Shown here in pieces: positions 7,865 to 36,017 of a stretch of DNA of 36,149 nucleotides. This DNA is from Candidatus Sysuiplasma jiujiangense (GTDB taxonomy: Archaea; Thermoplasmatota; Thermoplasmata; Sysuiplasmatales; Sysuiplasmataceae). The notes under the pieces were generated by a model. It made no database searches. It saw only the letters and a list, made by a program, of their open reading frames with translations, and was not told the DNA's origin. The stretch spans positions 62,001 to 98,149 of the forward strand of contig JAHEAD010000007.1 of NCBI GenBank assembly GCA_019721075.1, read 5' to 3'. A program made the position numbers and the translations under genes. Each line of letters starts with the position of its first letter. The stretch's first letter is position 1.

Positions 7865-7961
7865 CGCGAGGAGGGGGATTTGAACCCCCGAGTCCTTACG
7901 GACAATGGATGTTTGCCGCTCATTAGCAATCCATCGCCTTACCGGGCTGGGCCATCCTCGC
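7865..7961 (-). tRNA. tRNA-Ser (GCU) with a 13-nt intron at 37/38 (7911-7923)
   Basis: Acceptor stem GCGAGGA/TCCTCGC. Anticodon arm ATGGA-TTGCTA[ATGAGCGGCAAAC]A-TCCAT. Long variable arm and GGGGG-TTCAAAT-CCCCC T arm. The TTGC/GCAA central helix fits a relaxed BHB. Confidence 0.92.
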
Positions 7962-11519: not shown

Positions 11520-14500
11520 TCATTCCGCGTAGTAATTCGCATCATAAGGCTGCGGACTCAGACCCTTTCTCTTTCTTATTTCGGGAACGACCTTGTCTGA
11601 TATCTCCTTGGGCACTTTTTCATAGCCGGCATTCTCAGTTGACCACAGCGCCCTTCCCTGTGTTGCACTCCTGATGGCGCTCGCAAATCCGAACATTTCT
11701 GCGACCGGCGCCTTCGCTTCAATTACGGTATTCTCCCCATCCTGCCTCATGTCGGCGATTATTCCGCGCCTCTGCTGTATTTCCCTGATCGCGTCTCCCA
11801 TGACGTCCGGCGGGACATTGATGTAAATCTTCTGCACAGGTTCGTAGAGGGCCCTGCCAGCCACAGCCATCGCACCGTAAATCGCAGAACGCGTTGCCGG
11901 TATAACCTGTGCAGGTCCCCTGTGTATGCTGTCCTCATGCAGTTTGGCATCCACGAGTTTGACCTTGACTTTCATAACTCTCTCCTGCGCAAGCGGGCCC
12001 AGCCTCATTGCTTCTTCAAAAGACTGTTTGCATAATTCCATCGTTTCAAAAAGATACTGTATTCCTTTGGTATAGTCTATGAATACATTCGTGTCTATGA
12101 ACATCTGGACTCCTCTGGCTTCATCCCTCTCCATGCCTATTTCCTGAAGTTTTTTAGCAAGCGCTTTTGAATCCTTTATTTTACCTTCTGTTCTTATTTC
12201 GCCGCTGGCGATTGCCTGGACTACGCTTTCCTCAAGAGGCTCGACTTCGATGTAGAATCTGTTGTGCTTGTTCGGGGACTTGCCCTCAAAAGGGCCACCT
12301 TTCCCCTCAATGCTTTCTCTGTAGACAACAATTGGTTTTGACGCGTTGATTTCGCATTTGTAGTCATTCACTATTCTGTACTGCGTAACTTCCAGATGCA
12401 ATTCACCCATTCCGGAAAGCAGATGTTCGCCTGTTTCCTGGTTGATTTCTACAGATATTGAAGGGTCGGCCTTTGCAATATTCCGCAGCACATCGATCAA
12501 TTTCGGAAGATCCTTCATCTGCTTGGCCTCTATCGCCACGGTCACAACCGGCTCACTGTAGTGTGTCATTTTCTCAAACGGTTCAATTCCCTGAACCGAG
12601 CTGACTGTCGAGCCTGAAATGGCGTCTTTGAGCCCTGTAACTGCTGCAATATTTCCTGCCCTGATCTCTTCGACTGGTATCCTGTCAGCACCAACGGAAA
12701 GCGCAACCGTCTGCACCCTGTTAGGCTGCGGCATTCCTGAAATGTAAAGTTCCTGTCCCCGTTTCAGCGTACCTGAGAATAGCCTTCCTACTGCAACTTC
12801 GCCCGCATGCTGATCAATTATTATCTTCGTAGCCATGAATATCGTCGGTCCATCCGGGTCAGACTTGATCAGTGCCTGCCCAAGCTCAGAATTCAGGTCT
12901 CCTTTCCAGATGGCCGGAATCCTGAGTTTCTGTGCATCTATCGGATTTGGATGATTTTTAACAACAGATTCCAGCACAACCCTGTGCAGGGGTATCTTCT
13001 GCGCAAGTGTCTTCTGGTCACCGTTGCGCAGGTGTTCGTAAATCTGCGGAAAAGTCATGCCGGTCTTCTTCATGTATGTAGCAGAAATTGCCCAGTTGTT
13101 GTAGGCACTTCCGAACAGAACTGTGTCATCCTCCACCCGCACGCCCCAGATCTTCTTCAGTCCTTCCGGCGCCGCAGCGTAAATCCGCTTGTTAACATCG
13201 TTTATGATGCTTACGAACCTCCTCTGCATATCCTCCGGCGTCACCTTGAGCTCGTTTATGAGCCTGTCTACCTTATTTATGAATAGAATGGGTCTTACCC
13301 TTTCTTTCAGCGCCTGCCTGATCACTGTTTCAGTCTGGGGCATCACCTGTTCTACCGAGTCTACGAGTATTATCACTCCATCTATTGCGCGCATAGCTCT
13401 TGTGACATCGCCGCCAAAGTCAACATGCCCCGGAGTGTCAATGAGGTTAATCAGGTAGTATTTTCCTTCGATCTCGTGCACCATTGAGGCGTTTGCCGCA
13501 TTGATCGTTATTCCTCTTGCCTGTTCCTGTTCGTCATAATCGAGCAGGAGCTGTTTTCCTGCGAGCTCCTCGCTCATCATTCCTGCACCAGCAATCAGAT
13601 TGTCGCTCAACGTTGTGTTATGAACAATGAGCCCTTCCACAAGCAGGTTATGTGTTCCCTCCACCGTGAAATCATAGACAAATTCCTCGAAACTGTATTC
13701 GATTGACTCTATTTCAACAGCCACAAGCTCTGACGGGAGTGCGTATAGCATTGCCACGGGCATTCCATCCTCCATCATTGCAATATTCGACCCTTGCGAA
13801 CTGAGGCCTGACCCCTCTCCTGCAGTTTCAGGGTTGGAAACAAAGCTTTCGACTTTGCTTATATCGCTCAGAAAATTTCTGCTGTCCGGATCCAGTGCGA
13901 CCCTGATGCCGAAGCGCAGGAGGGCAAGTGATACAGCATGCAGAAAAGTTCTTTTCCGGCTGTCCATTTTTTCAGGATTCATTCTGTTTATCATTCCGGC
14001 TATCAGATCTAATGCCAGATCACTCTGCAGGCGGTAAAAAACTCCGCCATTTCCATTCCCACCGAATAATTTTTGCAGTACACCTGTTTCGTTGCCCTCT
14101 TCAAGCCCGGCAAAAAGCTTACCGATGAGTTCCTTCCGGTCTTTGCAGTTTATCTGCTCATCTGCAAGAAGTGACGTCTCGCTTAATTCCAAATCACCAA
14201 TATCGAGGAATGCCGGGGCTATGAGTCTGTCACCAGGTTTTAGTTCACACGATCGGAGTTCTGCAGTTTGACCATCCCGTAGAACAACAAATTTGTGTTC
14301 CGGAGTCACCGTAACTTCTCTTCCGTTATTTGGCTTAATCTTCAGCAGTTTTTCATCATTCCTGATCTTCCATACATGGGTGATCGGCCGTTTCTCCAGC
14401 TTCATTTCCTGTGTGTTAAGGCTAACAGTAACCTCCTTCCCACGGACCGTGTAGACGGTATTGTCCCTGTCTGAGAAAACAGGCTGCCCATGCGAGTACT

Positions 14501-14669
14501 TCCTGTAGAGTTCGTCGGCCGGAAGCCATGAGCCGTTGGAATAAACCATGGAATTCCCGCTCATGCATTTGCCATGGTCTATGTGTGCTGCCGTTCCGAT
14601 ATTTCTTATGTATCTCGGATCTTTCATTATGGCTTGAGCTCTTGCAATATTGTCTTCCTTTCTGCCCAA
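11520..14669 (-). CDS. fusA: Translation elongation factor EF-2, intein-containing precursor (1049 aa; 732 aa after splicing)
   Basis: RNIG..AHIDHGK/TTLSDNL, EQARGITI, DTPGHVDF, NKVD, GMGELHLE, and the diphthamide loop LHEDSIHRGPAQ. Confidence 0.97.
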   Translation of the reverse strand: MGRKEDNIARAQAIMKDPRYIRNIGTAAHIDHGKCMSGNSMVYSNGSWLPADELYRKYSHGQPVFSDRDNTVYTVRGKEVTVSLNTQEMKLEKRPITHVWKIRNDEKLLKIKPNNGREVTVTPEHKFVVLRDGQTAELRSCELKPGDRLIAPAFLDIGDLELSETSLLADEQINCKDRKELIGKLFAGLEEGNETGVLQKLFGGNGNGGVFYRLQSDLALDLIAGMINRMNPEKMDSRKRTFLHAVSLALLRFGIRVALDPDSRNFLSDISKVESFVSNPETAGEGSGLSSQGSNIAMMEDGMPVAMLYALPSELVAVEIESIEYSFEEFVYDFTVEGTHNLLVEGLIVHNTTLSDNLIAGAGMMSEELAGKQLLLDYDEQEQARGITINAANASMVHEIEGKYYLINLIDTPGHVDFGGDVTRAMRAIDGVIILVDSVEQVMPQTETVIRQALKERVRPILFINKVDRLINELKVTPEDMQRRFVSIINDVNKRIYAAAPEGLKKIWGVRVEDDTVLFGSAYNNWAISATYMKKTGMTFPQIYEHLRNGDQKTLAQKIPLHRVVLESVVKNHPNPIDAQKLRIPAIWKGDLNSELGQALIKSDPDGPTIFMATKIIIDQHAGEVAVGRLFSGTLKRGQELYISGMPQPNRVQTVALSVGADRIPVEEIRAGNIAAVTGLKDAISGSTVSSVQGIEPFEKMTHYSEPVVTVAIEAKQMKDLPKLIDVLRNIAKADPSISVEINQETGEHLLSGMGELHLEVTQYRIVNDYKCEINASKPIVVYRESIEGKGGPFEGKSPNKHNRFYIEVEPLEESVVQAIASGEIRTEGKIKDSKALAKKLQEIGMERDEARGVQMFIDTNVFIDYTKGIQYLFETMELCKQSFEEAMRLGPLAQERVMKVKVKLVDAKLHEDSIHRGPAQVIPATRSAIYGAMAVAGRALYEPVQKIYINVPPDVMGDAIREIQQRRGIIADMRQDGENTVIEAKAPVAEMFGFASAIRSATQGRALWSTENAGYEKVPKEISDKVVPEIRKRKGLSPQPYDANYYAE
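13617..14567 (-). mobile_element. Intein in EF-2 (residues 35-351, 317 aa) with an apparently degenerate endonuclease region
   Basis: In-frame insert between GK and T of the P-loop. It starts with Cys (CMSGNSMV), has block B (VTVTPEHKF), block F (FVYDFTVEGTHNL) and terminal HN followed by +1 Thr. Confidence 0.95.
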
Positions 14670-17701: not shown

Positions 17702-18091
17702 ATGAGTAATTCAGAACATTCAAGGAAAGAATTGAGAGTGTTTTATCCTGATATGAAATATTCCGGAAGTGAGGCGACCAGCTCAGAAAGGGTCTTTGAG
17801 GTGTACGATCCTCCTATGTGTTGTTCCACCGGTGTCTGCGGTCCTTCTGTGGACACAGTGCTTATTGAGTTTGCCCAAAACTTGGAGTGGCTGAAAAGGA
17901 AGGGGGTGGATGTTGTCAGATACAACCTCTCACAGCAGCCCGGAGCGTTTGTTCAGAATTCTGAAGTCAGCAGACTGCTGTCTGCGGAGGGAAACGGCTG
18001 CCTTCCAATAACCATGCTTAACGGAAAGGTTGTAACTTCAAGATCTTATCCCGGGCGAGACGAACTGGCAAGAATCCTTGATTTGGAGTGA
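17702..18091 (+). CDS. arsD: Arsenite metallochaperone ArsD
   Basis: YDPPMCCSTGVCGPSVD, RYNLSQQPGAF, LP...NG......YP. The start could be ATG 17753. Confidence 0.93.
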   Translation: MSNSEHSRKELRVFYPDMKYSGSEATSSERVFEVYDPPMCCSTGVCGPSVDTVLIEFAQNLEWLKRKGVDVVRYNLSQQPGAFVQNSEVSRLLSAEGNGCLPITMLNGKVVTSRSYPGRDELARILDLE

Positions 18092-18097
18092 AATGCG

Positions 18098-19810
18098 TTG
18101 AAATTGTCAGGCGCCGTCAGGCGGTTTGTATTCTTTACTGGCAAGGGGGGAGTAGGAAAAACTACTGTTGCCTCTGCAGTCGCAGTATCTCTTGCTGATG
18201 AAGGGAAAAGAGTTCTCCTCATCAGCACCGATCCTGCCTCCAACCTAGATGAAATATTCGGCATACCGCTTACATCCTCCCCGTCACAGATACCAGGCAT
18301 TTCTACATTATTTGCTCTCAATATAAATCCCGAAACTGCCGCGGTCAATTACAGGGAACGTATCGTGGGACCTTACCGTTCACTTCTGCCAAAAGATGCT
18401 GTGATGAGTATCGAGGAACAGCTCTCCGGCGCATGCACGATGGAAGTTGCGACGTTTGATGAGTTTTCAAAATTTCTTGGCGATCCGCAGGCAACCGATA
18501 AATTTGATCACATCATATTCGATACGGCACCAACAGGTCACACAATGAGACTGTTGTCACTCCCGGCAGCCTGGTCAGATTTTCTCAGTTCGAGTTCATC
18601 CATAACAACATGCCTCGGTCCTCTAGCCGGACTGCGCGAACAGAAGATACTTTACGGCAGGGCAAGAAACAGGCTCACTGACAGCGCAATGACAACCATG
18701 GTTCTGGTGTCTCGTCCTGACAAGTCAGCGTTGTTTGAGGCGGAGCGCACCAGCTTAGAGCTCAGTGCCCAGGGCATCTCCAATCAGTATCTTGTGCTGA
18801 ATGGCGTTTTTGAAACTGATGAAAGTGGTGATCCGACTGCCATCGAGATCTGTGAACAGCAACAGGATGCAATTGAGAAAATGCCGGAGGGTCTGAAGCA
18901 TCTTGAAAGATTCGATTTCGCTCTCCAGCCATTCAACCCCATAGGTGTAGGGGAACTCAGGGCATTTATGAGTGGCAAAGCCAAGGCGGAGGCATCAAAC
19001 GGTCAGTACGGGATCGACATGCAGTACATGCCTTCTTTCGAGAACATGATTGATGCACTGGCAGTCGAGGGTTATGGAATAATAATGACTATGGGCAAGG
19101 GAGGAGTGGGAAAAACTACTGTCGCCTCGATGATTGCTGTAGCACTTTCCAATCGTGGATATTCAGTTCATCTGACAACTACCGATCCTGCAGGCAAATT
19201 CTATATGGATCCGCTGCCTCCTAATCTCCGGGTCAGCAAAATAGACGCTGAACTGGAAACGGCCGCATATGTGCAGGATGTACTCAGAATTTCTGCCCCC
19301 GGGCTGGACGACGAGGGAATGAAACTGCTTGAGGAAGATCTCAGATCGCCATGTACTCAGGAAATTGCTGTATTCCGTGCTTTCTCTGAGGTCGTGGCCG
19401 AAGGCGAAAACGGATTCGTGGTAATCGATACGGCACCAACGGGCCATACGCTGCTCCTTCTGGATGCAGCAGAATCATATCACAGGGAAGTTCTACGCTC
19501 GACTGGAAATTCACCGGAAAACATCAAAAGACTACTCCCGCGGCTGAGAGACCGGAAACTTACAAAAATAGTCATCGTTACTCTTCCGGAACCAACACCC
19601 GTCCATGAGGCAGCGCAGCTTCAATCAGACATGATTAGAGCAGGCATAACACCGTTTGCATGGATAGTAAACCGCAGTCTCATCCCACTGCACATTCAGG
19701 ATCATACGCTGGCCCATCGGAGGGCAGGGGAACTACGGTATTTTGCCGAGGTTGCAGGCATTTCAAACCGCACTTTTCTGGTAGGATGGAAGACAGAAAG
19801 GAATATTTAA
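18098..19810 (+). CDS. arsA: Arsenite-activated ATPase ArsA (two-domain)
   Basis: Two GKGGVGKTT P-loops, two DTAPTGHT motifs, and metalloid-binding cysteines in SGACT, TCLGP and RSPCT. Confidence 0.96.
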   Translation: MKLSGAVRRFVFFTGKGGVGKTTVASAVAVSLADEGKRVLLISTDPASNLDEIFGIPLTSSPSQIPGISTLFALNINPETAAVNYRERIVGPYRSLLPKDAVMSIEEQLSGACTMEVATFDEFSKFLGDPQATDKFDHIIFDTAPTGHTMRLLSLPAAWSDFLSSSSSITTCLGPLAGLREQKILYGRARNRLTDSAMTTMVLVSRPDKSALFEAERTSLELSAQGISNQYLVLNGVFETDESGDPTAIEICEQQQDAIEKMPEGLKHLERFDFALQPFNPIGVGELRAFMSGKAKAEASNGQYGIDMQYMPSFENMIDALAVEGYGIIMTMGKGGVGKTTVASMIAVALSNRGYSVHLTTTDPAGKFYMDPLPPNLRVSKIDAELETAAYVQDVLRISAPGLDDEGMKLLEEDLRSPCTQEIAVFRAFSEVVAEGENGFVVIDTAPTGHTLLLLDAAESYHREVLRSTGNSPENIKRLLPRLRDRKLTKIVIVTLPEPTPVHEAAQLQSDMIRAGITPFAWIVNRSLIPLHIQDHTLAHRRAGELRYFAEVAGISNRTFLVGWKTERNI

Positions 19811-20766: not shown

Positions 20767-20865
20767 TGCGGGAGGAGGGATTTGAACCCACGGACCCCTG
20801 CGGGACAGAATATCCCAGGTTTTTTCTTAAGTCCTGCGCTGTTGGCCATGCTTAGCTACTCCCGC
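20767..20865 (-). tRNA. tRNA-Leu (UAA) with a 14-nt intron at 37/38 (20812-20825)
   Basis: Acceptor stem GCGGGAG/CTCCCGC with discriminator A. Anticodon arm CAGGA-CTTAAG[AAAAAACCTGGGAT]A-TTCTG. Long variable arm and TTCAAAT loop. Confidence 0.9.
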
Positions 20866-28384: not shown

Positions 28385-28858
28385 ATGACTGAACTTGAAG
28401 TTGGTGAAAAGGCGCCTGATTTTGCCCTGCCAAAAAGCAGGGATCAGAAGGTTTTGCTGAAGGATCTTACAAAGAGTGGAAAAGTGGTCATTGTATTCTA
28501 TCCCGGTGATTTCAGTTCGGTATGCACAAACGAGTGGTGCAGCCTGAGAGACAATTTAAATGAGTTTGAGAAGCTGAATGCCAAGGTCGTTGGCATAAGT
28601 GGCGACAGCCACTTCACGCATGACGCATTTAGAAAGGCCAACTCGTTGAATTTCGATCTTTTGAGCGACTATGATCATCAGGTGTCCAAGCTTTTCAACG
28701 TTTATTACGATGATTTTCTTGGAATGAAAGGCGTTTCCAAGAGATCTGTATTCATTGTAGACAGAGAGGGCAGAATACGCTACAAGTGGGTCACAGAGGA
28801 CGCGTCAAAACTCCCTGATATAGAGGAGATAAAGAACGAGCTTGCAAAGATCAACTGA
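28385..28858 (+). CDS. Peroxiredoxin (BCP/PrxQ or AhpE-like)
   Basis: APDF.L, FYP.DFS.VCT.EWC (CxxxxC), GIS.D, LLSD and the conserved Arg in RSVFIVD. Confidence 0.93.
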   Translation: MTELEVGEKAPDFALPKSRDQKVLLKDLTKSGKVVIVFYPGDFSSVCTNEWCSLRDNLNEFEKLNAKVVGISGDSHFTHDAFRKANSLNFDLLSDYDHQVSKLFNVYYDDFLGMKGVSKRSVFIVDREGRIRYKWVTEDASKLPDIEEIKNELAKIN

Positions 28859-28954
28859 TTATTCTCAAAATGATTATGGCAACCTTCTCGACATTCAGTA
28901 AATAGGCTTCAAACACAAAATGCCTCAGACGTGTTTCAGGATTCATGAGTGTTC

Positions 28955-29056
28955 TGTGTGCTTGCATATCTCACAGAACGCATAGTAGAGATTGACGTGA
29001 GGGAATTGCATGCAGGAGAGGAACAGCCAGCACAGTTCGCTTCCTGCCGTTATAGC
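28955..29056 (+). repeat. Copy A of a diverged inverted repeat; probable transposase relic (IS1634/IS4-like C-terminal fragment)
   Basis: Shares TGTGTGCTTGCATATCTC (18 nt) and TGCAGGAGAGGAACA (15 nt), plus further collinear matches, with the reverse complement of 35237-35332. It translates as CVLAYLTERIVEIDV. Confidence 0.75.
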
Positions 29057-29352
29057 TCCACATCTTTGGGGAATGAGGCCAATTTTTTGCGACGGCTATT
29101 TTCGAACTGCCTCGGCCTGTCAAATGATGCCATCGCCTGTGATATCCACATTCGTGCCAAGAAGAAAAACGTCCTTTCGGGCCGGCAGACATGTGCAACA
29201 AAGCGGCCTCTCTGCAACGCAAGGCTTCCCGACGGAAGATACAGTCACTCAACAAACAACAGGATGCAGGAGGGGCTTGACCATGCGTATGTCATCTCGC
29301 GCGAAAAGCGGCTTAGTCGGATAATAATATATGTGTTATCATAACCCTCTTC

Positions 29353-30237
29353 ATGGTCTGTAAACGCGATTTCAGGGGTTATGGGGAGAAGCCGCCCAAG
29401 TTCAAGTGGCCTGGGGGAAAGTCTCTCGCTCTTTCGATTGTTTTCAATTTTGAGGAAGGCGCAGAGCATTCAATGGAGGAAGACGGCGTCGTCGAGACGA
29501 TAGGTGAATTCGGTCCCGTAAATATTCAGACGAGAGACATGGGCATGGAGAGTGTTTACGAGTACGGTCAGAGGGTGGGAATATGGAGAATACTGAACTT
29601 CCTGCGGGACCAGGAGGTGAAGGCCACATTCTTTGCTGCAGCACGCGCGCTGGAAGTCAACCCTGAAGCCGCAAGGAGGATAATGGCTGACGGCCATGAA
29701 ATATGCGACCACGGGCTGAGGTGGAACGAACTTTACGGAATGAGCTACGAGCAGGAAACCAGGGAAATCGGGCAATCCGTAGCCTTGATAGAGAATATCA
29801 CCGGAAAAAAACCCGTCGGCTTCTATGCAAGGGAACCGAGCAGCAATACGCTTGAAATACTCTCCCATTTCAAAAATTTCATCTATGATTCGGACTCGTA
29901 CAGCGACGATATACCGTACTATTGCCGCGAAACAGGCATGCTGGTATTGCCATACACGCCTGACGCCAACGATTTTCACTTTCTCAGTCCAATGCACCGC
30001 TTTTCGACTAGCCATGAATTCGGTCAGTACCTCAGGGATACGTTTGACGTGCTTTACGAGGAATCCGCCCGGCAATCGAAAATGATGACTGCCGCATTTC
30101 ATGTGAGAGTGACGGGCAGGCCGGGCAGATTTGTCGCTTTGAGGGAGTTCCTCAAGTACGTCAAGCGGAACGATCGGACATGGATTGCTACCCGGGAGGA
30201 AATAGCCAGGTTCTGGCTTTCGGAGTTTCCACGGTGA
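29353..30237 (+). CDS. Polysaccharide deacetylase-fold amidohydrolase of the PuuE allantoinase type
   Basis: NFEEGAE, ES.YEYG.RVG.WRI, HE...HGLRW (the Glu-His-Trp signature of metal-independent PuuE), YDSDSY.DD.PY, PYT.D.ND and H.R..GRPGR. Confidence 0.88.
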   Translation: MVCKRDFRGYGEKPPKFKWPGGKSLALSIVFNFEEGAEHSMEEDGVVETIGEFGPVNIQTRDMGMESVYEYGQRVGIWRILNFLRDQEVKATFFAAARALEVNPEAARRIMADGHEICDHGLRWNELYGMSYEQETREIGQSVALIENITGKKPVGFYAREPSSNTLEILSHFKNFIYDSDSYSDDIPYYCRETGMLVLPYTPDANDFHFLSPMHRFSTSHEFGQYLRDTFDVLYEESARQSKMMTAAFHVRVTGRPGRFVALREFLKYVKRNDRTWIATREEIARFWLSEFPR

Positions 30238-30286
30238 GCAGGACACAGCTCGATCTACGCTGAAAGCTGAAAATGAAAGAGAAACC

Positions 30287-30750
30287 AGCATCCTCAAACG
30301 AATGAATTCACGGGATGCCTTGTGGCATCAGGAAGCGACCTCTCTGCCGCAGGCGGTTTGCAATTCGACGACCGGATCCTCATTCCGCTCCTGGAAGACA
30401 GGGCCCGATTTCCATGCGCGTTAATTCCGGCATGCACATCCTACTGTCTTCAGTGCCCCGCGGAGGATGTTTTTCAATGCGCTGACATCATGTCGTTCAT
30501 ATGTCCGCATGGACGCTGATAACCCCTGTCTCTGAGTGCGAGCAATACATCGGCTCTTCTGCCGCACATCAGGCATTGCTGCGCGGTGCCGGCTGTTTCC
30601 ACTTTGACGTACATCCACATGCCGTTGTTGCGTGGATGAATGACATTTGCTGTCACGAGGCGGACCGCGTATCTGCCATTGTATCATCCGGTGGCATGAA
30701 GTGGTTTGCATGCGGCGGGCAACTTCATCTCGGGTACACCGTCTTCCGCA
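30287..30750 (-). pseudogene. tnpB: Second, heavily frameshifted tnpB C-terminal relic with a degenerate right end
   Basis: Minus-strand fragments across frames: YVKVETAGTAQQCLMCG..LALRDRGYQ.PCGH / HDVSALKNILRGALKTVG / MPELTRMEIGP. These are followed by CCCGTGAATTCATTCGTTTGAGGATG, which resembles the right end at 16652-16682. Confidence 0.72.
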
Positions 30751-30754
30751 AATT

Positions 30755-32350
30755 TTACATGATCCTGTCTGGTTCATAACCTGAATAAGGACGCGCGTCC
30801 ATGTACCTGTTCCCGCTGATTACCGCCCATGTATAGAATGCGATGGAGACGACGGTGAATACGACAAGGTCGTAAGGAAATGGTATCATGTTGTTTCCGT
30901 GAAAATCCGAACTTCCCGTTGCCGAAATAACCATGACTGCTATGAAATAGACGAACAGCCACAAACCTCCTTTCAGTTCAGAGCTGTCTATCTTCACCAT
31001 CCTAGCGTGATAGAAGAAGAGCAACAGACCCACCATTACCGACGGAATGGCTATTTGCACTATGTTCCAGCCTGTCCAGTATATCAGCAGGCCGCCGATT
31101 ACGAAACCGACAGGACACAGGACGCTGGCAAGCGGGAGCCTGTAAGGCTCACTGCTGGCCCTGATATGTTTTCTGAAAACCATGAGGGAGACTCCTGCCG
31201 GACCGTAGGATACCAGCGATGCGTCAACGAAAACAAGAGCTATGCTGATAAACACGGGTATCATGAAAGTGTATATCGCGCTGACAATGAGGACAACAAT
31301 CACTGCAACGTAAGGTATTCCCCGTCTGCTCAGCTTGCCAAAAATCGGTGGAAGATATCTGTTCTCCGCGAGTGCGGCCATCACCCTAGCTGCGCCGCCG
31401 CTGTATATCAGCGACGAAGAGGCGGATGAGTGGATAGACGTTATGAATATGAAATAAGCCATGAGCACCAGCCCCGCCTCGAATCCGAGCGCAGGCAATG
31501 GAAAGGTCAGAGTACTCAGACCCTGCCAGTTACCTGGGTGCAGGCCGAAATAATGCCAGTTGATAGAGCCGACGAAAGCAACGGACAGCGATTCATAAAT
31601 GAGAAACGAGATGAAAATCGAGAGTGCGATTGCTATAGGAATGTCCCGTTTATGGTTCTTCAGTTCCTCTGCATAATCGATCGGCTGCCTAAATCCCGCA
31701 TAAGCATAGACCGTGGTTGCCACCGCTAGCAGTATGCCCGCGGAGTGGTAGGGGTTGAATCCTCCCGGGAAAATCGTGAAATTCGAAGGATGAAAGTAAA
31801 ACGCCAGGAAAAAGACACCTATGAACGCGAGTGAGAACAGCTTGAGCCATGTCAGGAACGAATTTGACTGATTCAGGTATGCTATGCCGAAATAGTTTCC
31901 TATGAAGAAAAGAAAAACTATGAACAGTGTCAGAAGCTCACCTTCAAAGGTCATTGTGCCTATCTTGAAATTAAAGAGCGGGCGGTAAAAATAACTCAAA
32001 TATTCGACTATTGCGACCGTTTCCGAAACCGGTGCAAGTATGTAGCCCAGAAAGGCTCCCCACCCGTTGAGTATTCCCGCCAGAGAACCGTTGGAGATGT
32101 GTGGATAGGATGCAACGCCCCCTGTCCTTGGCATGAGTGTCCCAAGTTCGGCGTAAATGAGACCGATCACAAGCATCATCAGTCCGCCGATGATCCATGC
32201 AACTGTACCTGCTGGCCCTGCATCCGCCAGAACCGTCACCGGAATGAACAGTATTGCGGAACCCAGAATTGCGCTTGTTGCGAGAAAGACCACGCCGAAG
32301 AGACCCACTTCTTTTTTGTATTTGCCAGCCCTGATATCTTCTGCTGCGAT
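30755..32350 (-). CDS. APC-superfamily amino acid/polyamine permease
   Basis: TM1 AILGSAILF, YAELG..MP.TGG...Y, YAYAGFR....AEE.KN.KRDIP.A and R...A.A....LP..F. First canonical start is GTG 32308, but the frame and an APC-like YKKEVGL motif extend upstream. Confidence 0.93.
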   Translation of the reverse strand: MAAEDIRAGKYKKEVGLFGVVFLATSAILGSAILFIPVTVLADAGPAGTVAWIIGGLMMLVIGLIYAELGTLMPRTGGVASYPHISNGSLAGILNGWGAFLGYILAPVSETVAIVEYLSYFYRPLFNFKIGTMTFEGELLTLFIVFLFFIGNYFGIAYLNQSNSFLTWLKLFSLAFIGVFFLAFYFHPSNFTIFPGGFNPYHSAGILLAVATTVYAYAGFRQPIDYAEELKNHKRDIPIAIALSIFISFLIYESLSVAFVGSINWHYFGLHPGNWQGLSTLTFPLPALGFEAGLVLMAYFIFITSIHSSASSSLIYSGGAARVMAALAENRYLPPIFGKLSRRGIPYVAVIVVLIVSAIYTFMIPVFISIALVFVDASLVSYGPAGVSLMVFRKHIRASSEPYRLPLASVLCPVGFVIGGLLIYWTGWNIVQIAIPSVMVGLLLFFYHARMVKIDSSELKGGLWLFVYFIAVMVISATGSSDFHGNNMIPFPYDLVVFTVVSIAFYTWAVISGNRYMDARPYSGYEPDRIM

Positions 32351-32578
32351 ATTATTGCCCCCCAGTTGTTACGCAAGTGGAATGCGCCCATGATAAACCT
32401 TGTCATATATATCATTTGTTGACTTCTTCCCGATCACCCATCACCCCCATCCACGTGTGCGCCGGAATATATTCTACAGTATCACAGCTCCGTCACGGGA
32501 AGCGATGCACACTATATCTGCGGCCGCGACATCCTGTATTCAAACACTGATGCTGCGCCCGCACCGGAAGTGTGTCCC

Positions 32579-33511
32579 TCAGAAATGCGGCGGGACGTAC
32601 GGCGTACCATTATTCCACAGTCCCGTCGCGAGGAATCCCTCGATTTCTCCAAGAATCCTTTTCCTGAGACGTTCTGGCACCAGCAATAGAATCCCGCCAC
32701 CTTTTCCGTCATTTCTAATGAGAGCATTCCTCAGGCGCTCTTCAGGCTGAATGAGGTACCCTCCCATCCCCCTCGATTTATATGTATCCTGGAGAAGATA
32801 GAATCTTCTGCTTTGGGAGGCAGTAGTGCTTCGAATAATGCCACCGGCGATGAGGAAATGGCCGACATTCCATTCATCCCTGCTCCTGCATTTCCCGCTT
32901 TTCAGAAAATCCATGATATCAATTATTGAACCCATGTTGCGGTTTGAACAAAGCATATTCATCTGCAGATTGAATATGACATGCATGCTGTCTGCAGGAA
33001 AATGCTTCCACAGCATATCAGTAAGGAGTGCGAAGTTGTGTCTCGAAAACTGTGTCTTCTGTCCGGTTCTGGAGGGTATCGGAATAACGGCAAACCTTCT
33101 GCCCAGTGTGGCTTCAGTTGCGGCCACGAGTCCTTCCACGCTTGTGCCCAGCTCGTCTGCCTGTCCAGAAACGCTTAACGGAACACTGTAGTATTTCTGG
33201 CGTATCTGTTCATCCATTCTGTTTTCATCCTTTCCGCTGAACCTGACGCTTATATTGTGTTCTTCCTCTGAAATCACTGTTCCGGACACCAGTGCGAGGC
33301 TGTCCTCTGTAATCTTGCTGTCACCGAGTCCCAGTGATCTCAGGATTTTCAGTAGCGAATACGGGCCGCAGGTCTCACTCTTCTGATCACGGAGTTCGTT
33401 GAAGATGCGGTGAAGTCGATCGAGTGTTTTCACCGGCCTGAATTCCAACTTCAGTGATTCTGTATCGTCCGCTTCAGATGAGTTCAAGAAATTTTTCAAC
33501 CTCCCATTCAT
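32579..33511 (-). CDS. Uncharacterised protein with a papain/C39-like Gln-Cys-His-Asp arrangement (possibly DUF6885 family, from recall)
   Basis: Q43-KSET-C48-G, GTS..GL..A, W.VG-H218-F and YLLQ-D242-TY. It overlaps the upstream GS-like gene. Confidence 0.8.
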   Translation of the reverse strand: MNGRLKNFLNSSEADDTESLKLEFRPVKTLDRLHRIFNELRDQKSETCGPYSLLKILRSLGLGDSKITEDSLALVSGTVISEEEHNISVRFSGKDENRMDEQIRQKYYSVPLSVSGQADELGTSVEGLVAATEATLGRRFAVIPIPSRTGQKTQFSRHNFALLTDMLWKHFPADSMHVIFNLQMNMLCSNRNMGSIIDIMDFLKSGKCRSRDEWNVGHFLIAGGIIRSTTASQSRRFYLLQDTYKSRGMGGYLIQPEERLRNALIRNDGKGGGILLLVPERLRKRILGEIEGFLATGLWNNGTPYVPPHF

Positions 33512-34832
33512 CCACGTTTCTGCGATAAGTATCCCATTCGGATTTCCTGACCTTCAGGTATTCTTCAAAGAAGGTGTTACCCATGGCATTTCGCAGAACA
33601 TTGTCTGCCTCTGCGAAATGTATGCTTTCAATTAGTGATGTCGGCAGCGTCTTCACCCCCCGTTTCTGAAGTTCGGCCGCATCGATTGATGAAGGATCGA
33701 AGGTCATCGGCTCTCCGGGATCCAGTTTTTCTTCTATGCCATGAATCCCGGCCGCGAGGACCGCGCCAAGGGCGATGTATGGGTTGGCAGAGCAGTCAGG
33801 CAACCTGAATTCTATCCTCTTTGCAGATATTGAACCCGACGGTATCGACGGAATCCTTATCGCAGCTCCCCTGTGATCGTATCCATAGGAGATGTGTGCA
33901 GGTGCCCAGCTTCCAGGAACAAGCCGTTTGTATGAGTTGGTAAGCGGATTCACGAATGCACACAGTGCATTCATGTGCTCCATCAGTCCGCCTGTGAAAT
34001 TATAGGCGGTTTCGCTCAATCCGAGACCTCTTCTGTCACTTTCATCATGAAATGCACTGCCGGATGTTTCTGCAAAGGAAAGGGAGATGTGCATGTGCAT
34101 GCCGCTTCCCGCAGATAAGGTGTCCACCTTCGGCATGAAAGATGCAATCATGGATCTCGATGAGCCCATGGACTTGATTACGCTTTTCAATGCAATCATG
34201 TTATCGGAGGCGCGGAGCGCATTGGTATGCTTTGTCGTAATTTCGACCTGCGAGCTGCCGTACTCCTTCTTGAAATGTTCCACCTCAATGCCCATGTTCC
34301 CGAGTGCGTTGCCCACATCAAGCAAAAAACCGTTCAACGTATCCAAGCTATGGCTTGACATGAGACTACCTTTGATGATTGGCGTCCTGTCCAGTCCGTA
34401 GAGATAGAATTCCGGCTCGAAGGAACAGAACGGTTTCAATCCCATTTTCTCCAGCCTTGAGATCATTCTGCGCAGAAAGAATCTCGGATCGGTCTCTGAT
34501 GGTGAAAGATCGGCGGGTTCGCACAGCTCTGCCTGCATTCTTCCCATGCCTGGGACATGCGGAAGCGCGGAATAAGTACTCAAATCCGGGATAAGCTTGA
34601 ATTCGGAAGACTGGGCGCCATACAAGCCATCCGGAGCGAGTCTGTCAAGCACGTTGAATGACTGCTGCGCCTTTGTAACCCCTATTCCCTCCATTATTGC
34701 TTTGTCGAGAAACTTCACGGAAGTGCCCATGCTTCTTAGAACGAGGTCAAAACCCATCCAGTCTATCTTGACTATGCGAACCCCATCCTTCTCGATGCGC
34801 TCCATTAATTTCGTGACCGTATCATTGTACAT
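33474..34832 (-). CDS. Glutamine synthetase-like protein, probable gamma-glutamyl-amide ligase
   Basis: FEPEFYL, EYG..QVEI, FMPK....GSGMHMH.SL, NSYKRLVPGSWAP, R.AAIRIP and RIEFRLPD..ANPY. Start placed at ATG 34832, about 20-25 nt after a TTTAAA box (the ORF track starts at 34892). Confidence 0.93.
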   Translation of the reverse strand: MYNDTVTKLMERIEKDGVRIVKIDWMGFDLVLRSMGTSVKFLDKAIMEGIGVTKAQQSFNVLDRLAPDGLYGAQSSEFKLIPDLSTYSALPHVPGMGRMQAELCEPADLSPSETDPRFFLRRMISRLEKMGLKPFCSFEPEFYLYGLDRTPIIKGSLMSSHSLDTLNGFLLDVGNALGNMGIEVEHFKKEYGSSQVEITTKHTNALRASDNMIALKSVIKSMGSSRSMIASFMPKVDTLSAGSGMHMHISLSFAETSGSAFHDESDRRGLGLSETAYNFTGGLMEHMNALCAFVNPLTNSYKRLVPGSWAPAHISYGYDHRGAAIRIPSIPSGSISAKRIEFRLPDCSANPYIALGAVLAAGIHGIEEKLDPGEPMTFDPSSIDAAELQKRGVKTLPTSLIESIHFAEADNVLRNAMGNTFFEEYLKVRKSEWDTYRRNVDEWEVEKFLELI

Positions 34833-35236
34833 CTTGGTTAACCTTTGTTGTTTTAAATTGATAGTGCTGATACCCCGGTTATTAGGCATCAATTACTCCG
34901 GTCTACGCGCAACCCGGCATTTTAATCTATGTGCTGGTTCGGTGGAATGGCGTATCAGACACCCTTGCCTAAAACCCGAGTTCGACAGGATTTTTAGCAT
35001 GATCGTTCGGGAATTTCACTTTCGAAATGTAGTAGTAACTGAGAAGGAGCACCTGCTCTTCTGAACGGAACTGGACTCTCTGCAGTGAATACCTCCTTTT
35101 CTGTGTCATGAGCTTCAGCAAGTGAGGAATGCCGTCCTGTGAGTTCTGTTGCGGTTAACCATGTGCGCGTCGAATCGCGCTTCTAAGCATTCTCGCTGAG
35201 AATGATGTTCTCGCATATACACTGAATATGCTCTCC

Positions 35237-35332
35237 GCTGTAACGGTGGAAAGGGGCTGTCCCGGTTGTTCCTCTCCTGCAGCCTCTTCACATCTATCTC
35301 GCGATGCGTTCTAAGAGATATGCAAGCACACA
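35237..35332 (-). repeat. Copy B of the diverged inverted repeat; probable transposase relic
   Basis: The reverse complement matches 28955-29056. It translates as CVLAYLLERI, then a frameshift, then EIDVKRLQE. Confidence 0.75.
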
Positions 35333-35402
35333 TGTGATACATGTGATACGTCACGTTTCCAGGAATCAACAACAGCAGTCATGCAATTCTCAATCCGGTC
35401 TT

Positions 35403-36017
35403 TCAATTTCGGGCTTGGCTCCTGAATCCGCGGGCCACGATGTAAGTCTCGGAACTCTGTTTCCTGCTTGCTGCAGGTTTTGAAGTCCTTACATTCTCAA
35501 ATCTCTCTGAGATTCTCTCGATTACTTCCCGGGATCTTCTTCCTTCAAACATCTTTGCGGCAAATGTTCCGCCGGCAACAAGCGCATCCTCAGCCACTTC
35601 CAGTGCCGCATTTACAAGCTCCACCGACTTCTCGTGATCGAGATCATAGTTCCCGCTGATATTCGGCGCCATGTCGGAAAGAACAACATCGGCATCTCCG
35701 CCTAGAGAATCTATTATCCTTGCACGCGTCTCCTTGTCTGTTATGTCTCCGCGTAGAATAATTGCGCCCTCAAGTTTTTTTATTGACGATATATCGACAC
35801 CTATTACTCTTCCCTTTTCTCCAGCTATTTCCAGCTCAACCTGGAGCCATCCCCCCGGCGCGGCTCCGAGGTCAAGGCACCGCATGCCTTCGAACATTAT
35901 GCTGAATTTAGCCTGAAGCTGCAGCAGCTTATACGCGGCTCTGCTTCGGTAGTTTTCTTTCTTGGCCTTAAGGTAGTATGTATCCCTTTTCCTCTCCCTC
36001 ATCCAGCGCTTTCCCAA
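35403..36017 (-). CDS. rlmE: 23S rRNA Um2552 methyltransferase RlmE/FtsJ
   Basis: YRSRAAYKL, LDLGAAPGGW, VLSDMAP, K.F.G and KP.ASR..S.E.Y (K-D-K-E tetrad). Confidence 0.96.
   Translation of the reverse strand: MGKRWMRERKRDTYYLKAKKENYRSRAAYKLLQLQAKFSIMFEGMRCLDLGAAPGGWLQVELEIAGEKGRVIGVDISSIKKLEGAIILRGDITDKETRARIIDSLGGDADVVLSDMAPNISGNYDLDHEKSVELVNAALEVAEDALVAGGTFAAKMFEGRRSREVIERISERFENVRTSKPAASRKQSSETYIVARGFRSQARN

Follow-up and report, generated by a model that had tools for sequence, protein, structure and literature searches.

A 36,149-nt stretch of the genome of the archaeon Candidatus Sysuiplasma jiujiangense (contig JAHEAD010000007.1, positions 62,001 to 98,149; hereafter the window, whose own numbering is used throughout) contains a block at 28859-35402, the interval between a peroxiredoxin gene and rlmE, in which a glutamine synthetase (GS)-like ligase gene adjoins a gene of the Pfam family DUF6885 (PF21819), followed by a permease gene. 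A previous reading of the sequence alone (the sequence-only reading) had proposed here a gamma-glutamylation module of three co-oriented genes, the first two overlapping. The open reading frames (ORFs) for the GS-like protein, the 310-amino acid (aa) protein and the APC permease all lie on the minus strand, and the 310-aa ORF overlaps the ligase at its stop codon by 38 nt. The block and its borders comprise the following features:

28385..28858, plus strand: peroxiredoxin gene, left boundary marker outside the module, placed by synteny with congeners
28955..29056, plus strand: decayed IS1634-family transposase 3' fragment at the left block end, forming an inverted repeat with the right end
29353..30237, plus strand: gene for a PuuE-like amide hydrolase of the polysaccharide deacetylase family (PF01522), convergent on the permease gene and within the inserted block
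30755..32308, minus strand: APC-superfamily amino acid/polyamine permease gene, 517 aa, start codon uncertain (PF13520, E 5e-38)
32579..33511, minus strand: gene for the DUF6885 (PF21819) predicted papain-fold cysteine enzyme, 310 aa, with Q43, C48, H218 and D242
33474..34832, minus strand: gene for the putative GS-like gamma-glutamyl-amide ligase of the GlnA3/PauA7/haloarchaeal GlnA2 type, 452 aa, ATG at 34832 (PF00120)
34974..35332, minus strand: decayed IS1634-family transposase 3' fragment at the right block end, inverted relative to the left fragment
35403..36017, minus strand: rlmE gene for an FtsJ-type rRNA methyltransferase, assigned by profile matches and synteny and marking the right boundary from outside the module

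The ligase matches PF00120 (E 8e-95), and its best NCBIfam model is gamma-glutamylputrescine synthetase (NF045547), with 339 bits against an equivalog cut-off of 650. It scores 296 bits with the type I glutamine synthetase model GlnA (TIGR00653, cut-off 429) and passes no NCBIfam cut-off; the query behind these values, and behind the identity to Haladaptatus GlnA2 given below, lacked the last 13 residues of the protein, which leaves the active-site columns unaffected. With residue columns anchored on the canonical type I glutamine synthetase (GSI) of the same genome, the ligase keeps eleven residues for metal, ATP and glutamate (E129, E131, E212, E220, H269, H271, R321, R339, R344, E357 and R359), while at the ammonia site D50 is replaced by Lys, N264 by Ala and E327 by Trp, and Y179 falls in a gap. 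The flap motif VPGSWAP is present, its Trp being W309. The canonical GSI is encoded separately, has the motif PGYEAP and passes TIGR00653 with 572 bits. GlnA3 and PauA7 are described as having Trp at the flap and having lost D50 and Y179 (PMC5403932), and Haloferax GlnA2, in which E327 and D50 are lost, glutamylates putrescine (PMC8394153). Because the residue pattern, the separate GSI and the GlnA3, PauA7 and GlnA2 precedents agree, amine glutamylation is a well-supported prediction for this ligase, as the sequence-only reading had supposed when it set the protein apart from ammonia-dependent glutamine synthetases.

The 310-aa partner had been taken for an unknown protein. It belongs to DUF6885, scoring 133.4 bits against a cut-off of 27, and Q43, C48, G49, GTS122-124, G127, G217-H218-F219 and D242 are all found where they had been read. 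A profile-free search returned 109 representatives at E <= 0.001, from which 70 near-full-length sequences were aligned, fragments excluded; all 70 match PF21819. Q43 and C48 are each conserved in 68 of the 70 rows, the two exceptions being gaps, H218 is present in every row, and the D242 column holds 66 Asp and 4 Glu. There is also no variation at G122, N181, G217, G273 and W299, and almost none at Q255, R266 and N301. Judged by this alignment, the Gln/Cys/His/Asp motif is not a chance pattern. Hydropathy indicates neither a signal peptide nor a membrane segment, and no longer or fused forms of DUF6885 were found, which is weak evidence.

The AlphaFold2 model of the protein has a mean predicted local distance difference test (pLDDT) score of 95, and its Foldseek and VIA-align matches point to the papain (clan CA) fold expected earlier. 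In the model C48 begins helix 48-59, H218 lies at the start of strand 217-229, and D242 directly follows strand 234-241; by the fold match the three residues would be adjacent. The top match in both programs is Nostoc Alr0975 (NsPCS; C83, PF05023), with Z 15.3-15.7 and a root-mean-square deviation of 2.5-2.7 over 173-178 residues. A newly released 'P210 CD lyase' ties with it in the wide structure search (Z 15.2), and C39 peptidases, PeiR, staphopain and UfSP follow at Z 10-13. Phytochelatin synthases (PCS) come straight after the DUF6885 clusters in the ESM Atlas. Searching PDB sequences with the protein, or with its profile, yielded no meaningful match. There is no match to PF07722 or PF00117, the predicted fold being papain and not class-I glutamine amidotransferase (GATase); the claim is that DUF6885 works like PuuD, not that it is one.

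DUF6885 and Alr0975 share the order Gln...Cys/His/Asp. Their sequence identity is 12-18%, and DUF6885 is ~100 residues longer, including a conserved C-terminal WDNG(S/T)P. Neither the window protein nor any of the 70 members matches PF05023 at E <= 1, and an assignment of DUF6885 to phytochelatin synthase by sequence was rejected on that count. The DUF6885 column that we take, from a sequence motif and not from structural superposition, to correspond to the essential PCS arginine is mostly Thr (50/70). The first two catalytic residues are spaced Q-x4-C in 67/67 DUF6885 sequences and Q-x5-C in Alr0975 and PCS, and the His-to-Asp spacing of 19-28 residues (20 in 44/70) compares with 18 in AtPCS1 (numbering of PMC3855540).

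The gene neighbourhoods provide the evidence that joins the two proteins. The survey comprises 107 distinct DUF6885 loci including the window. A genome scan supplied 80 of them, the best among its 344 hits and mostly Solirubrobacterales; the others come from metagenomes (17 of 18 loci, the remaining one being too short for scoring) and from genomes returned by evenly drawn searches. A GS-like gene lies within 0.6 kb of DUF6885 in 91/107 loci and within 3 kb in 95/107; it is absent in seven, and five loci are too short. When the loci are grouped at 60% identity into 20 clusters, the ligase is found in 15 of the 18 informative ones, so that the linkage to GS-like genes anticipated for the homologues is recovered. 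In a second evenly drawn sample, in which 10/401 genomes exceed the cut-off, seven of nine genomes examined have an adjacent ligase, one has a ligase at 3.9 kb and one has none; one locus (L189) repeats another (L034). DUF6885 itself is rare and patchy, exceeding the cut-off in 1/60 relatives, 1/300 members of the phylum and 0/14 controls. The two genes overlap or abut in many loci, and it is the ligase, not the M20 amidohydrolase discussed below, that is the DUF6885 partner common to archaeal and bacterial clades. A plasmid search with an actinobacterial DUF6885 homologue found nothing; with the window protein it returned two Haladaptatus plasmids.

All aligned DUF6885-adjacent ligases keep the metal ligands and replace the flap Glu by Trp or Phe. 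They do not form one clade (approximately unbiased test, p 1.5e-6, 14 vs 11 rows). The window ligase is 36% identical to Haladaptatus GlnA2 and groups with that of locus L092, in a branch other than the one holding Haladaptatus GlnA2. Close relatives of the paired ligases are followed by an amidohydrolase gene in 5/5 Deinococcota loci viewed, as is a second Haladaptatus ligase, and in the tree the DUF6885-paired ligases interleave with these amidohydrolase-paired ones. This interleaving suggests that the hydrolase slot beside the ligase is swappable.

Haladaptatus caseinilyticus and Haladaptatus halobius, two cultured species, encode an annotated gamma-glutamylputrescine synthetase with DUF6885 directly next to it, in the order glnA2-DUF6885-M20-(aminotransferase)-permease. 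Two archaeal metagenome loci (L095 and L097) read permease-aminotransferase III-ligase-DUF6885 and a third (L093) is the same without the permease, with no other hydrolase nearby; the class-III aminotransferase lies inside the operon in L093-L097. In the functions it encodes, the set of permease, aminotransferase III, ligase and DUF6885 reportedly matches the spu operons of Pseudomonas. Across the 107 loci, permeases occur in 15, a PuuE-like gene in six further loci and an Orn/Lys/Arg decarboxylase in five, and the neighbours are mostly genes of uptake and breakdown (permeases, aminotransferases, dehydrogenases and amidohydrolases). PuuD-like genes are as rare near DUF6885 as had been expected, with one in 107 loci, 7.3 kb away.

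Several of these loci have individual features. One (L099:7220-10860) places DUF6885 and a GS-like gene beside a corrinoid protein and the monomethylamine methyltransferase MtmB. An actinobacterial cluster (L043, L085) consists of a permease, an isochorismatase-family hydrolase, two short-chain dehydrogenases/reductases (SDRs), a PuuE-like deacetylase, a thiamine pyrophosphate enzyme, a nitrilase-family amidase, GntR, DUF6885, ligase, M20 and an Orn/Lys/Arg decarboxylase. Loci L014, L021, L029 and L013 carry a divergent lineage of DUF6885-adjacent ligase with a flap of the RRRPGYFA(S/G)A type, Phe at E327 and Lys at R359; L021, L029 and L123 have at least two GS-like genes per cluster. The ligase upstream of DUF6885 at L102:2511-3930 is split into three reading-frame pieces, from assembly error or decay. 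Genes annotated as glnA2 or gamma-glutamylputrescine synthetase also occur within IucA/IucC siderophore clusters on haloarchaeal plasmids (L155, L171, L172, L175 and L177), hinting at a biosynthetic use of the GlnA2-type ligase.

Besides Alr0975, three known systems are close enough for comparison. First, like the Puu pathway of E. coli (PuuP/PuuA/PuuB/PuuC/PuuD) and the Pau pathway of P. aeruginosa (PauA1-7, PauD) (PMC9397018, PMC8394153), the block combines a permease, a GS-like ligase without the ammonia-specific residues and a candidate hydrolase; unlike them, the adjacent hydrolase is predicted to be papain-fold and not a class-I GATase, and no PuuB-like oxidase was found in the genome. 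Second, the window ligase shares with S. coelicolor GlnA3 (SCO6962) and PauA7 the Trp at the E327 flap and the loss of D50 and Y179. A non-PuuD hydrolase gene adjoins the ligase in the GlnA3 and GlnA4 systems as well, the amidohydrolase SCO6961 for GlnA3 and SCO1615 of the N-formylglutamate amidohydrolase (FGase) family for GlnA4. Those partners are only predicted deglutamylases, and they are metal amidohydrolases, whereas here a predicted Cys-His-Asp enzyme occupies the slot. Third, GlnA2 of Haloferax mediterranei, a glutamate-putrescine ligase, is an archaeal amine ligase demonstrated by assay (PMC8394153). Its model (NF045547) is the best NCBIfam model for the window ligase, and DUF6885 directly follows its Haladaptatus namesakes; the window ligase, however, is far under the NF045547 cut-off and in another branch. 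More generally, GS-fold ligases of other kinds occur as fusions with a transglutaminase-like papain domain or in linkage with GATase-like peptidases (PMC2588565), which offers a general precedent. The main text of PMC10318531 does not mention PF21819, and its supplements may list these proteins. A literature search, with subscription journals largely outside its reach, found no paper naming DUF6885 and no report of the ligase-DUF6885 pairing.

The block is best explained as an acquired module that handles amines by gamma-glutamylation. The ligase and DUF6885 are a real, conserved and apparently undescribed pair within a type of pathway that is already known. From the predicted fold, the catalytic residues, the residue pattern of the ligase and the linkage, we infer the following activities. 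The permease would import an amine or amino compound. By analogy to GlnA3, PauA7 and haloarchaeal GlnA2, the ligase would convert glutamate and ATP to gamma-glutamyl phosphate and join this to an organic amine rather than to ammonia. At its free end the glutamylated amine would then be transaminated or oxidised, in some organisms by the class-III aminotransferase of the operon and here by enzymes encoded elsewhere. No such step is encoded in the block; class-III aminotransferases and aldehyde dehydrogenases are found at other sites of the genome. Finally, Cys48 of DUF6885 would attack the gamma-glutamyl amide with the help of His218 and Asp242, Gln43 serving as the oxyanion residue, to form a glutamyl thioester from which glutamate is released to water. 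The bond specificity of DUF6885 is suggested by its gene position. With this specificity, DUF6885 would add one more unrelated fold to those in the place of PuuD, which are class-I GATase, amidohydrolase_2 and FGase. The most likely substrate is a diamine, polyamine or related omega-amino compound, and it probably differs between ligase lineages. That DUF6885 is a gamma-glutamyl-amide hydrolase with a fold new to an amine pathway of known kind is, in our judgement, an evenly balanced proposition.

A number of observations weigh against that role for DUF6885. The sequence-only reading had noted that no PuuD is encoded; this is correct for the window and incorrect for the genome, where a Peptidase_C26 protein (C1:85264-86019 of G000, E 1.9e-54) is PuuD-like. 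Its gene has no GS gene linked to it, and its score with the PuuD model is 99.5 bits, the cut-off being 266. Several DUF6885-positive actinobacterial genomes also encode PuuD-like proteins elsewhere. One locus (L123) has two class-I GATases, and in another (L196) the order ligase-PuuD-like-DUF6885-ligase sets a PuuD-like gene right beside DUF6885. An M20 amidohydrolase is present in 76/107 loci, most of them from a single lineage of Solirubrobacterales, and both Haladaptatus operons have one too. Another hydrolase of the query panel, which covers part of the hydrolase families, lies within 3.5 kb in 71/72 GS-linked loci of the Solirubrobacterales block and in 11/23 other GS-linked loci. In seven informative loci no ligase accompanies DUF6885, and two of these (L012 and L121) have M20 genes; L025 and L059 have DUF6885 with a decarboxylase, and L119 has DUF6885 alone. 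The PuuB-like oxidase was sought in the genome by tblastn with two DAO-family queries and not found. The argument from phytochelatin synthases is also weaker than first put. The likeness of fold to Alr0975 holds; the likeness of bond does not, because PCS and NsPCS, as PMC3855540 describes them, cut the Cys-Gly bond of glutathione, removing Gly and leaving the gamma-glutamyl bond intact. PCS-type enzymes are accordingly no precedent for cleavage of that bond.

An exclusion of PuuD at the genome level was rejected on strong C26 matches in G000, G345, G348, G349, G476 and G502; at E 1e-20 there is no C26 match in G026, G067 and G512. A class-III aminotransferase lies ~6.4 kb from the stand-alone PuuD-like Peptidase_C26 gene of G000 (L005, L127). 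In favour of the proposed DUF6885 role, amidohydrolase_2 has no match in the Sysuiplasma genome. NpaG was dismissed as a candidate gamma-glutamyl hydrolase, being a salicylate hydroxylase according to PMC11335346.

Because of the M20 and other hydrolases, the class-I GATases, the PuuD-like neighbours and the ligase-less loci, the pathway may instead contain two hydrolytic steps, with DUF6885 acting on a different amide. This is the less probable of the two readings, and the strongest of the alternatives. The bond would be that of an N-acyl group, or a peptide bond beside a gamma-glutamyl residue as in PCS, and deglutamylation would fall to a co-encoded M20 or other amidohydrolase or, in this genome, to the unlinked PuuD-like protein. 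The frequency of a second hydrolase fits well, including M20 in both Haladaptatus operons and in the ligase-less L012 and L121, an alpha/beta-hydrolase after DUF6885 in L092, the PuuE-like deacetylase of the window block, and a related ligase in Allomeiothermus with two hydrolases, FGase and amidohydrolase; Alr0975, moreover, deglycylates glutathione. It fits less well that the ligase and not M20 is the partner shared across archaeal and bacterial clades, that several archaeal operons have no other hydrolase, and that the genome's own PuuD-like gene is unlinked and far below its model cut-off.

It is also conceivable, and distinctly less likely, that DUF6885 is a transpeptidase whose acyl-enzyme is resolved by an amine acceptor, to build a gamma-glutamyl peptide or oligomer or to move the tag to a second amine. 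The closest fold belongs to a dipeptidyl-transferase family, near relatives of the ligase sit in the haloarchaeal siderophore clusters, which makes a biosynthetic use plausible, and the Orn/Lys/Arg decarboxylase recurs in 5/107 loci. The prevalence of uptake and breakdown genes speaks for catabolism instead, the genome has no match to the gamma-glutamylcysteine ligase GCS2 (the other GshA family was not searched), none of the 70 members matches the phytochelatin synthase Pfam, and Thr predominates in the presumed arginine column. Similarly doubtful is a bolder version, in which DUF6885 is a phytochelatin-synthase-like transferase and forms with the ligase a mobile two-enzyme unit of archaea and soil bacteria; instead of only taking off the glutamyl tag, the pair would make a gamma-glutamyl-amine peptide or oligomer not described before.

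Action on a protein, either processing or regulating the ligase or stripping glutamyl or isopeptide marks, appears improbable. Overlapping or abutting genes in many loci and the C39 leader peptidases and isopeptidases among the next fold matches (Z 10-13) would suit it; the neighbourhoods are those of small-molecule transport and catabolism, the recurring ORF clusters (built from ORFs of at least 120 aa) hold no conserved small precursor or tag gene, and DUF6885 switches ligase partners across lineages. It is very improbable that the ligase is just another glutamine synthetase of the ordinary kind, with incidental neighbours: the PF00120 match and the glutamine synthetases that are its best PDB matches are outweighed by the replacement of D50, N264 and E327, the missed GlnA cut-off that the genome's own GSI passes (572 vs 429), and the recurrence of the linkage to DUF6885 across domains of life.

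Comparison with congeners bears on the origin of the module. The peroxiredoxin-rlmE spacing is 6544 nt here and 52-105 nt in 3/3 same-genus genomes (G001, G002 and G003), the equivalent site of which is missing the whole 6.5-kb block with its three genes, convergent PuuE-like deacetylase gene and inverted transposase fragments. No DUF6885 and no close ligase match was found in these genomes (completeness 95, 95 and 78%). The fragments at the block ends form an inverted repeat (77/102 nt). The left one, conceptually translated, is similar to the C-terminal end of a G001 transposase that is intact and passes NF033559, although the fragment's own tblastn match is weak (E 0.012); the right one is 71% identical over 362 nt to a copy on C23 and 76% identical to G001 copies, with a tblastn E of 8e-4 for the G001 transposase. 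No intact insertion sequence ends and no target-site duplication were seen at the block ends. Transposition of the block as one unit is plausible, and loss from the congeners instead is possible. The GC content at third codon positions is 0.55-0.62 in the block, slightly above the 0.48-0.52 of four genes flanking it, and overall GC does not differ; composition therefore does not show transfer.

The permease is less securely linked to the pair than the two enzymes are to each other, because G001 has a PuuE-like gene and, two genes from it, a permease 43% identical to that of the window, without the ligase. The PuuE-like gene is found in both G001 and G003 without ligase or DUF6885; in G001 (L137, C9:7453-13078) it accompanies a KynB-like cyclase, an APC permease, an SDR and an aminotransferase. 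An association of the permease with the neighbouring PuuE-like gene may thus be no less close than one with the ligase pair. It reaches no NCBIfam cut-off, and the PuuE-like protein scores 294 bits with TIGR03212, under the cut-off of 425.

An Rfam search of the block gave no match, and a promoter and terminator scan performed at chance level. Contigs of one mine-drainage RNA library, 99% identical, span parts of the permease and DUF6885 genes and not the ligase; such contigs cannot show transcription or co-transcription and are only a hint of expression. A second run had no contigs covering the block. One RNA-library contig matches from 36027 onwards, its upstream part being unrelated sequence. 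Elsewhere in the window are an elongation factor 2 gene (11520-14669, minus strand), whose N-terminal part has an intein-splicing domain match (PF14890, E 4e-23), arsD and arsA-like arsenic resistance genes (17702-19810, plus strand), and two tRNA matches (7865-7961 and 20767-20865, minus strand), which score modestly with Rfam and, at 97-99 nt, exceed the model length through either a long variable arm or an intron. The TgtA of the window passes its NCBIfam cut-off, which marks the window as archaeal.

If DUF6885 is indeed a gamma-glutamyl-amide hydrolase, an uncharacterised Pfam family would gain a function and the deglutamylation step a papain-fold solution. The surprise would be moderate, as the logic of the pathway is well known and non-PuuD partners have already been proposed. 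DUF6885 would be a candidate for the downstream archaeal glutamylation step that the Haloferax GlnA2 paper leaves open (PMC8394153), a question made directly testable by the cultured Haladaptatus strains. The phytochelatin-synthase branch of the papain clan would then have a sister family that acts on small gamma-glutamyl amides.

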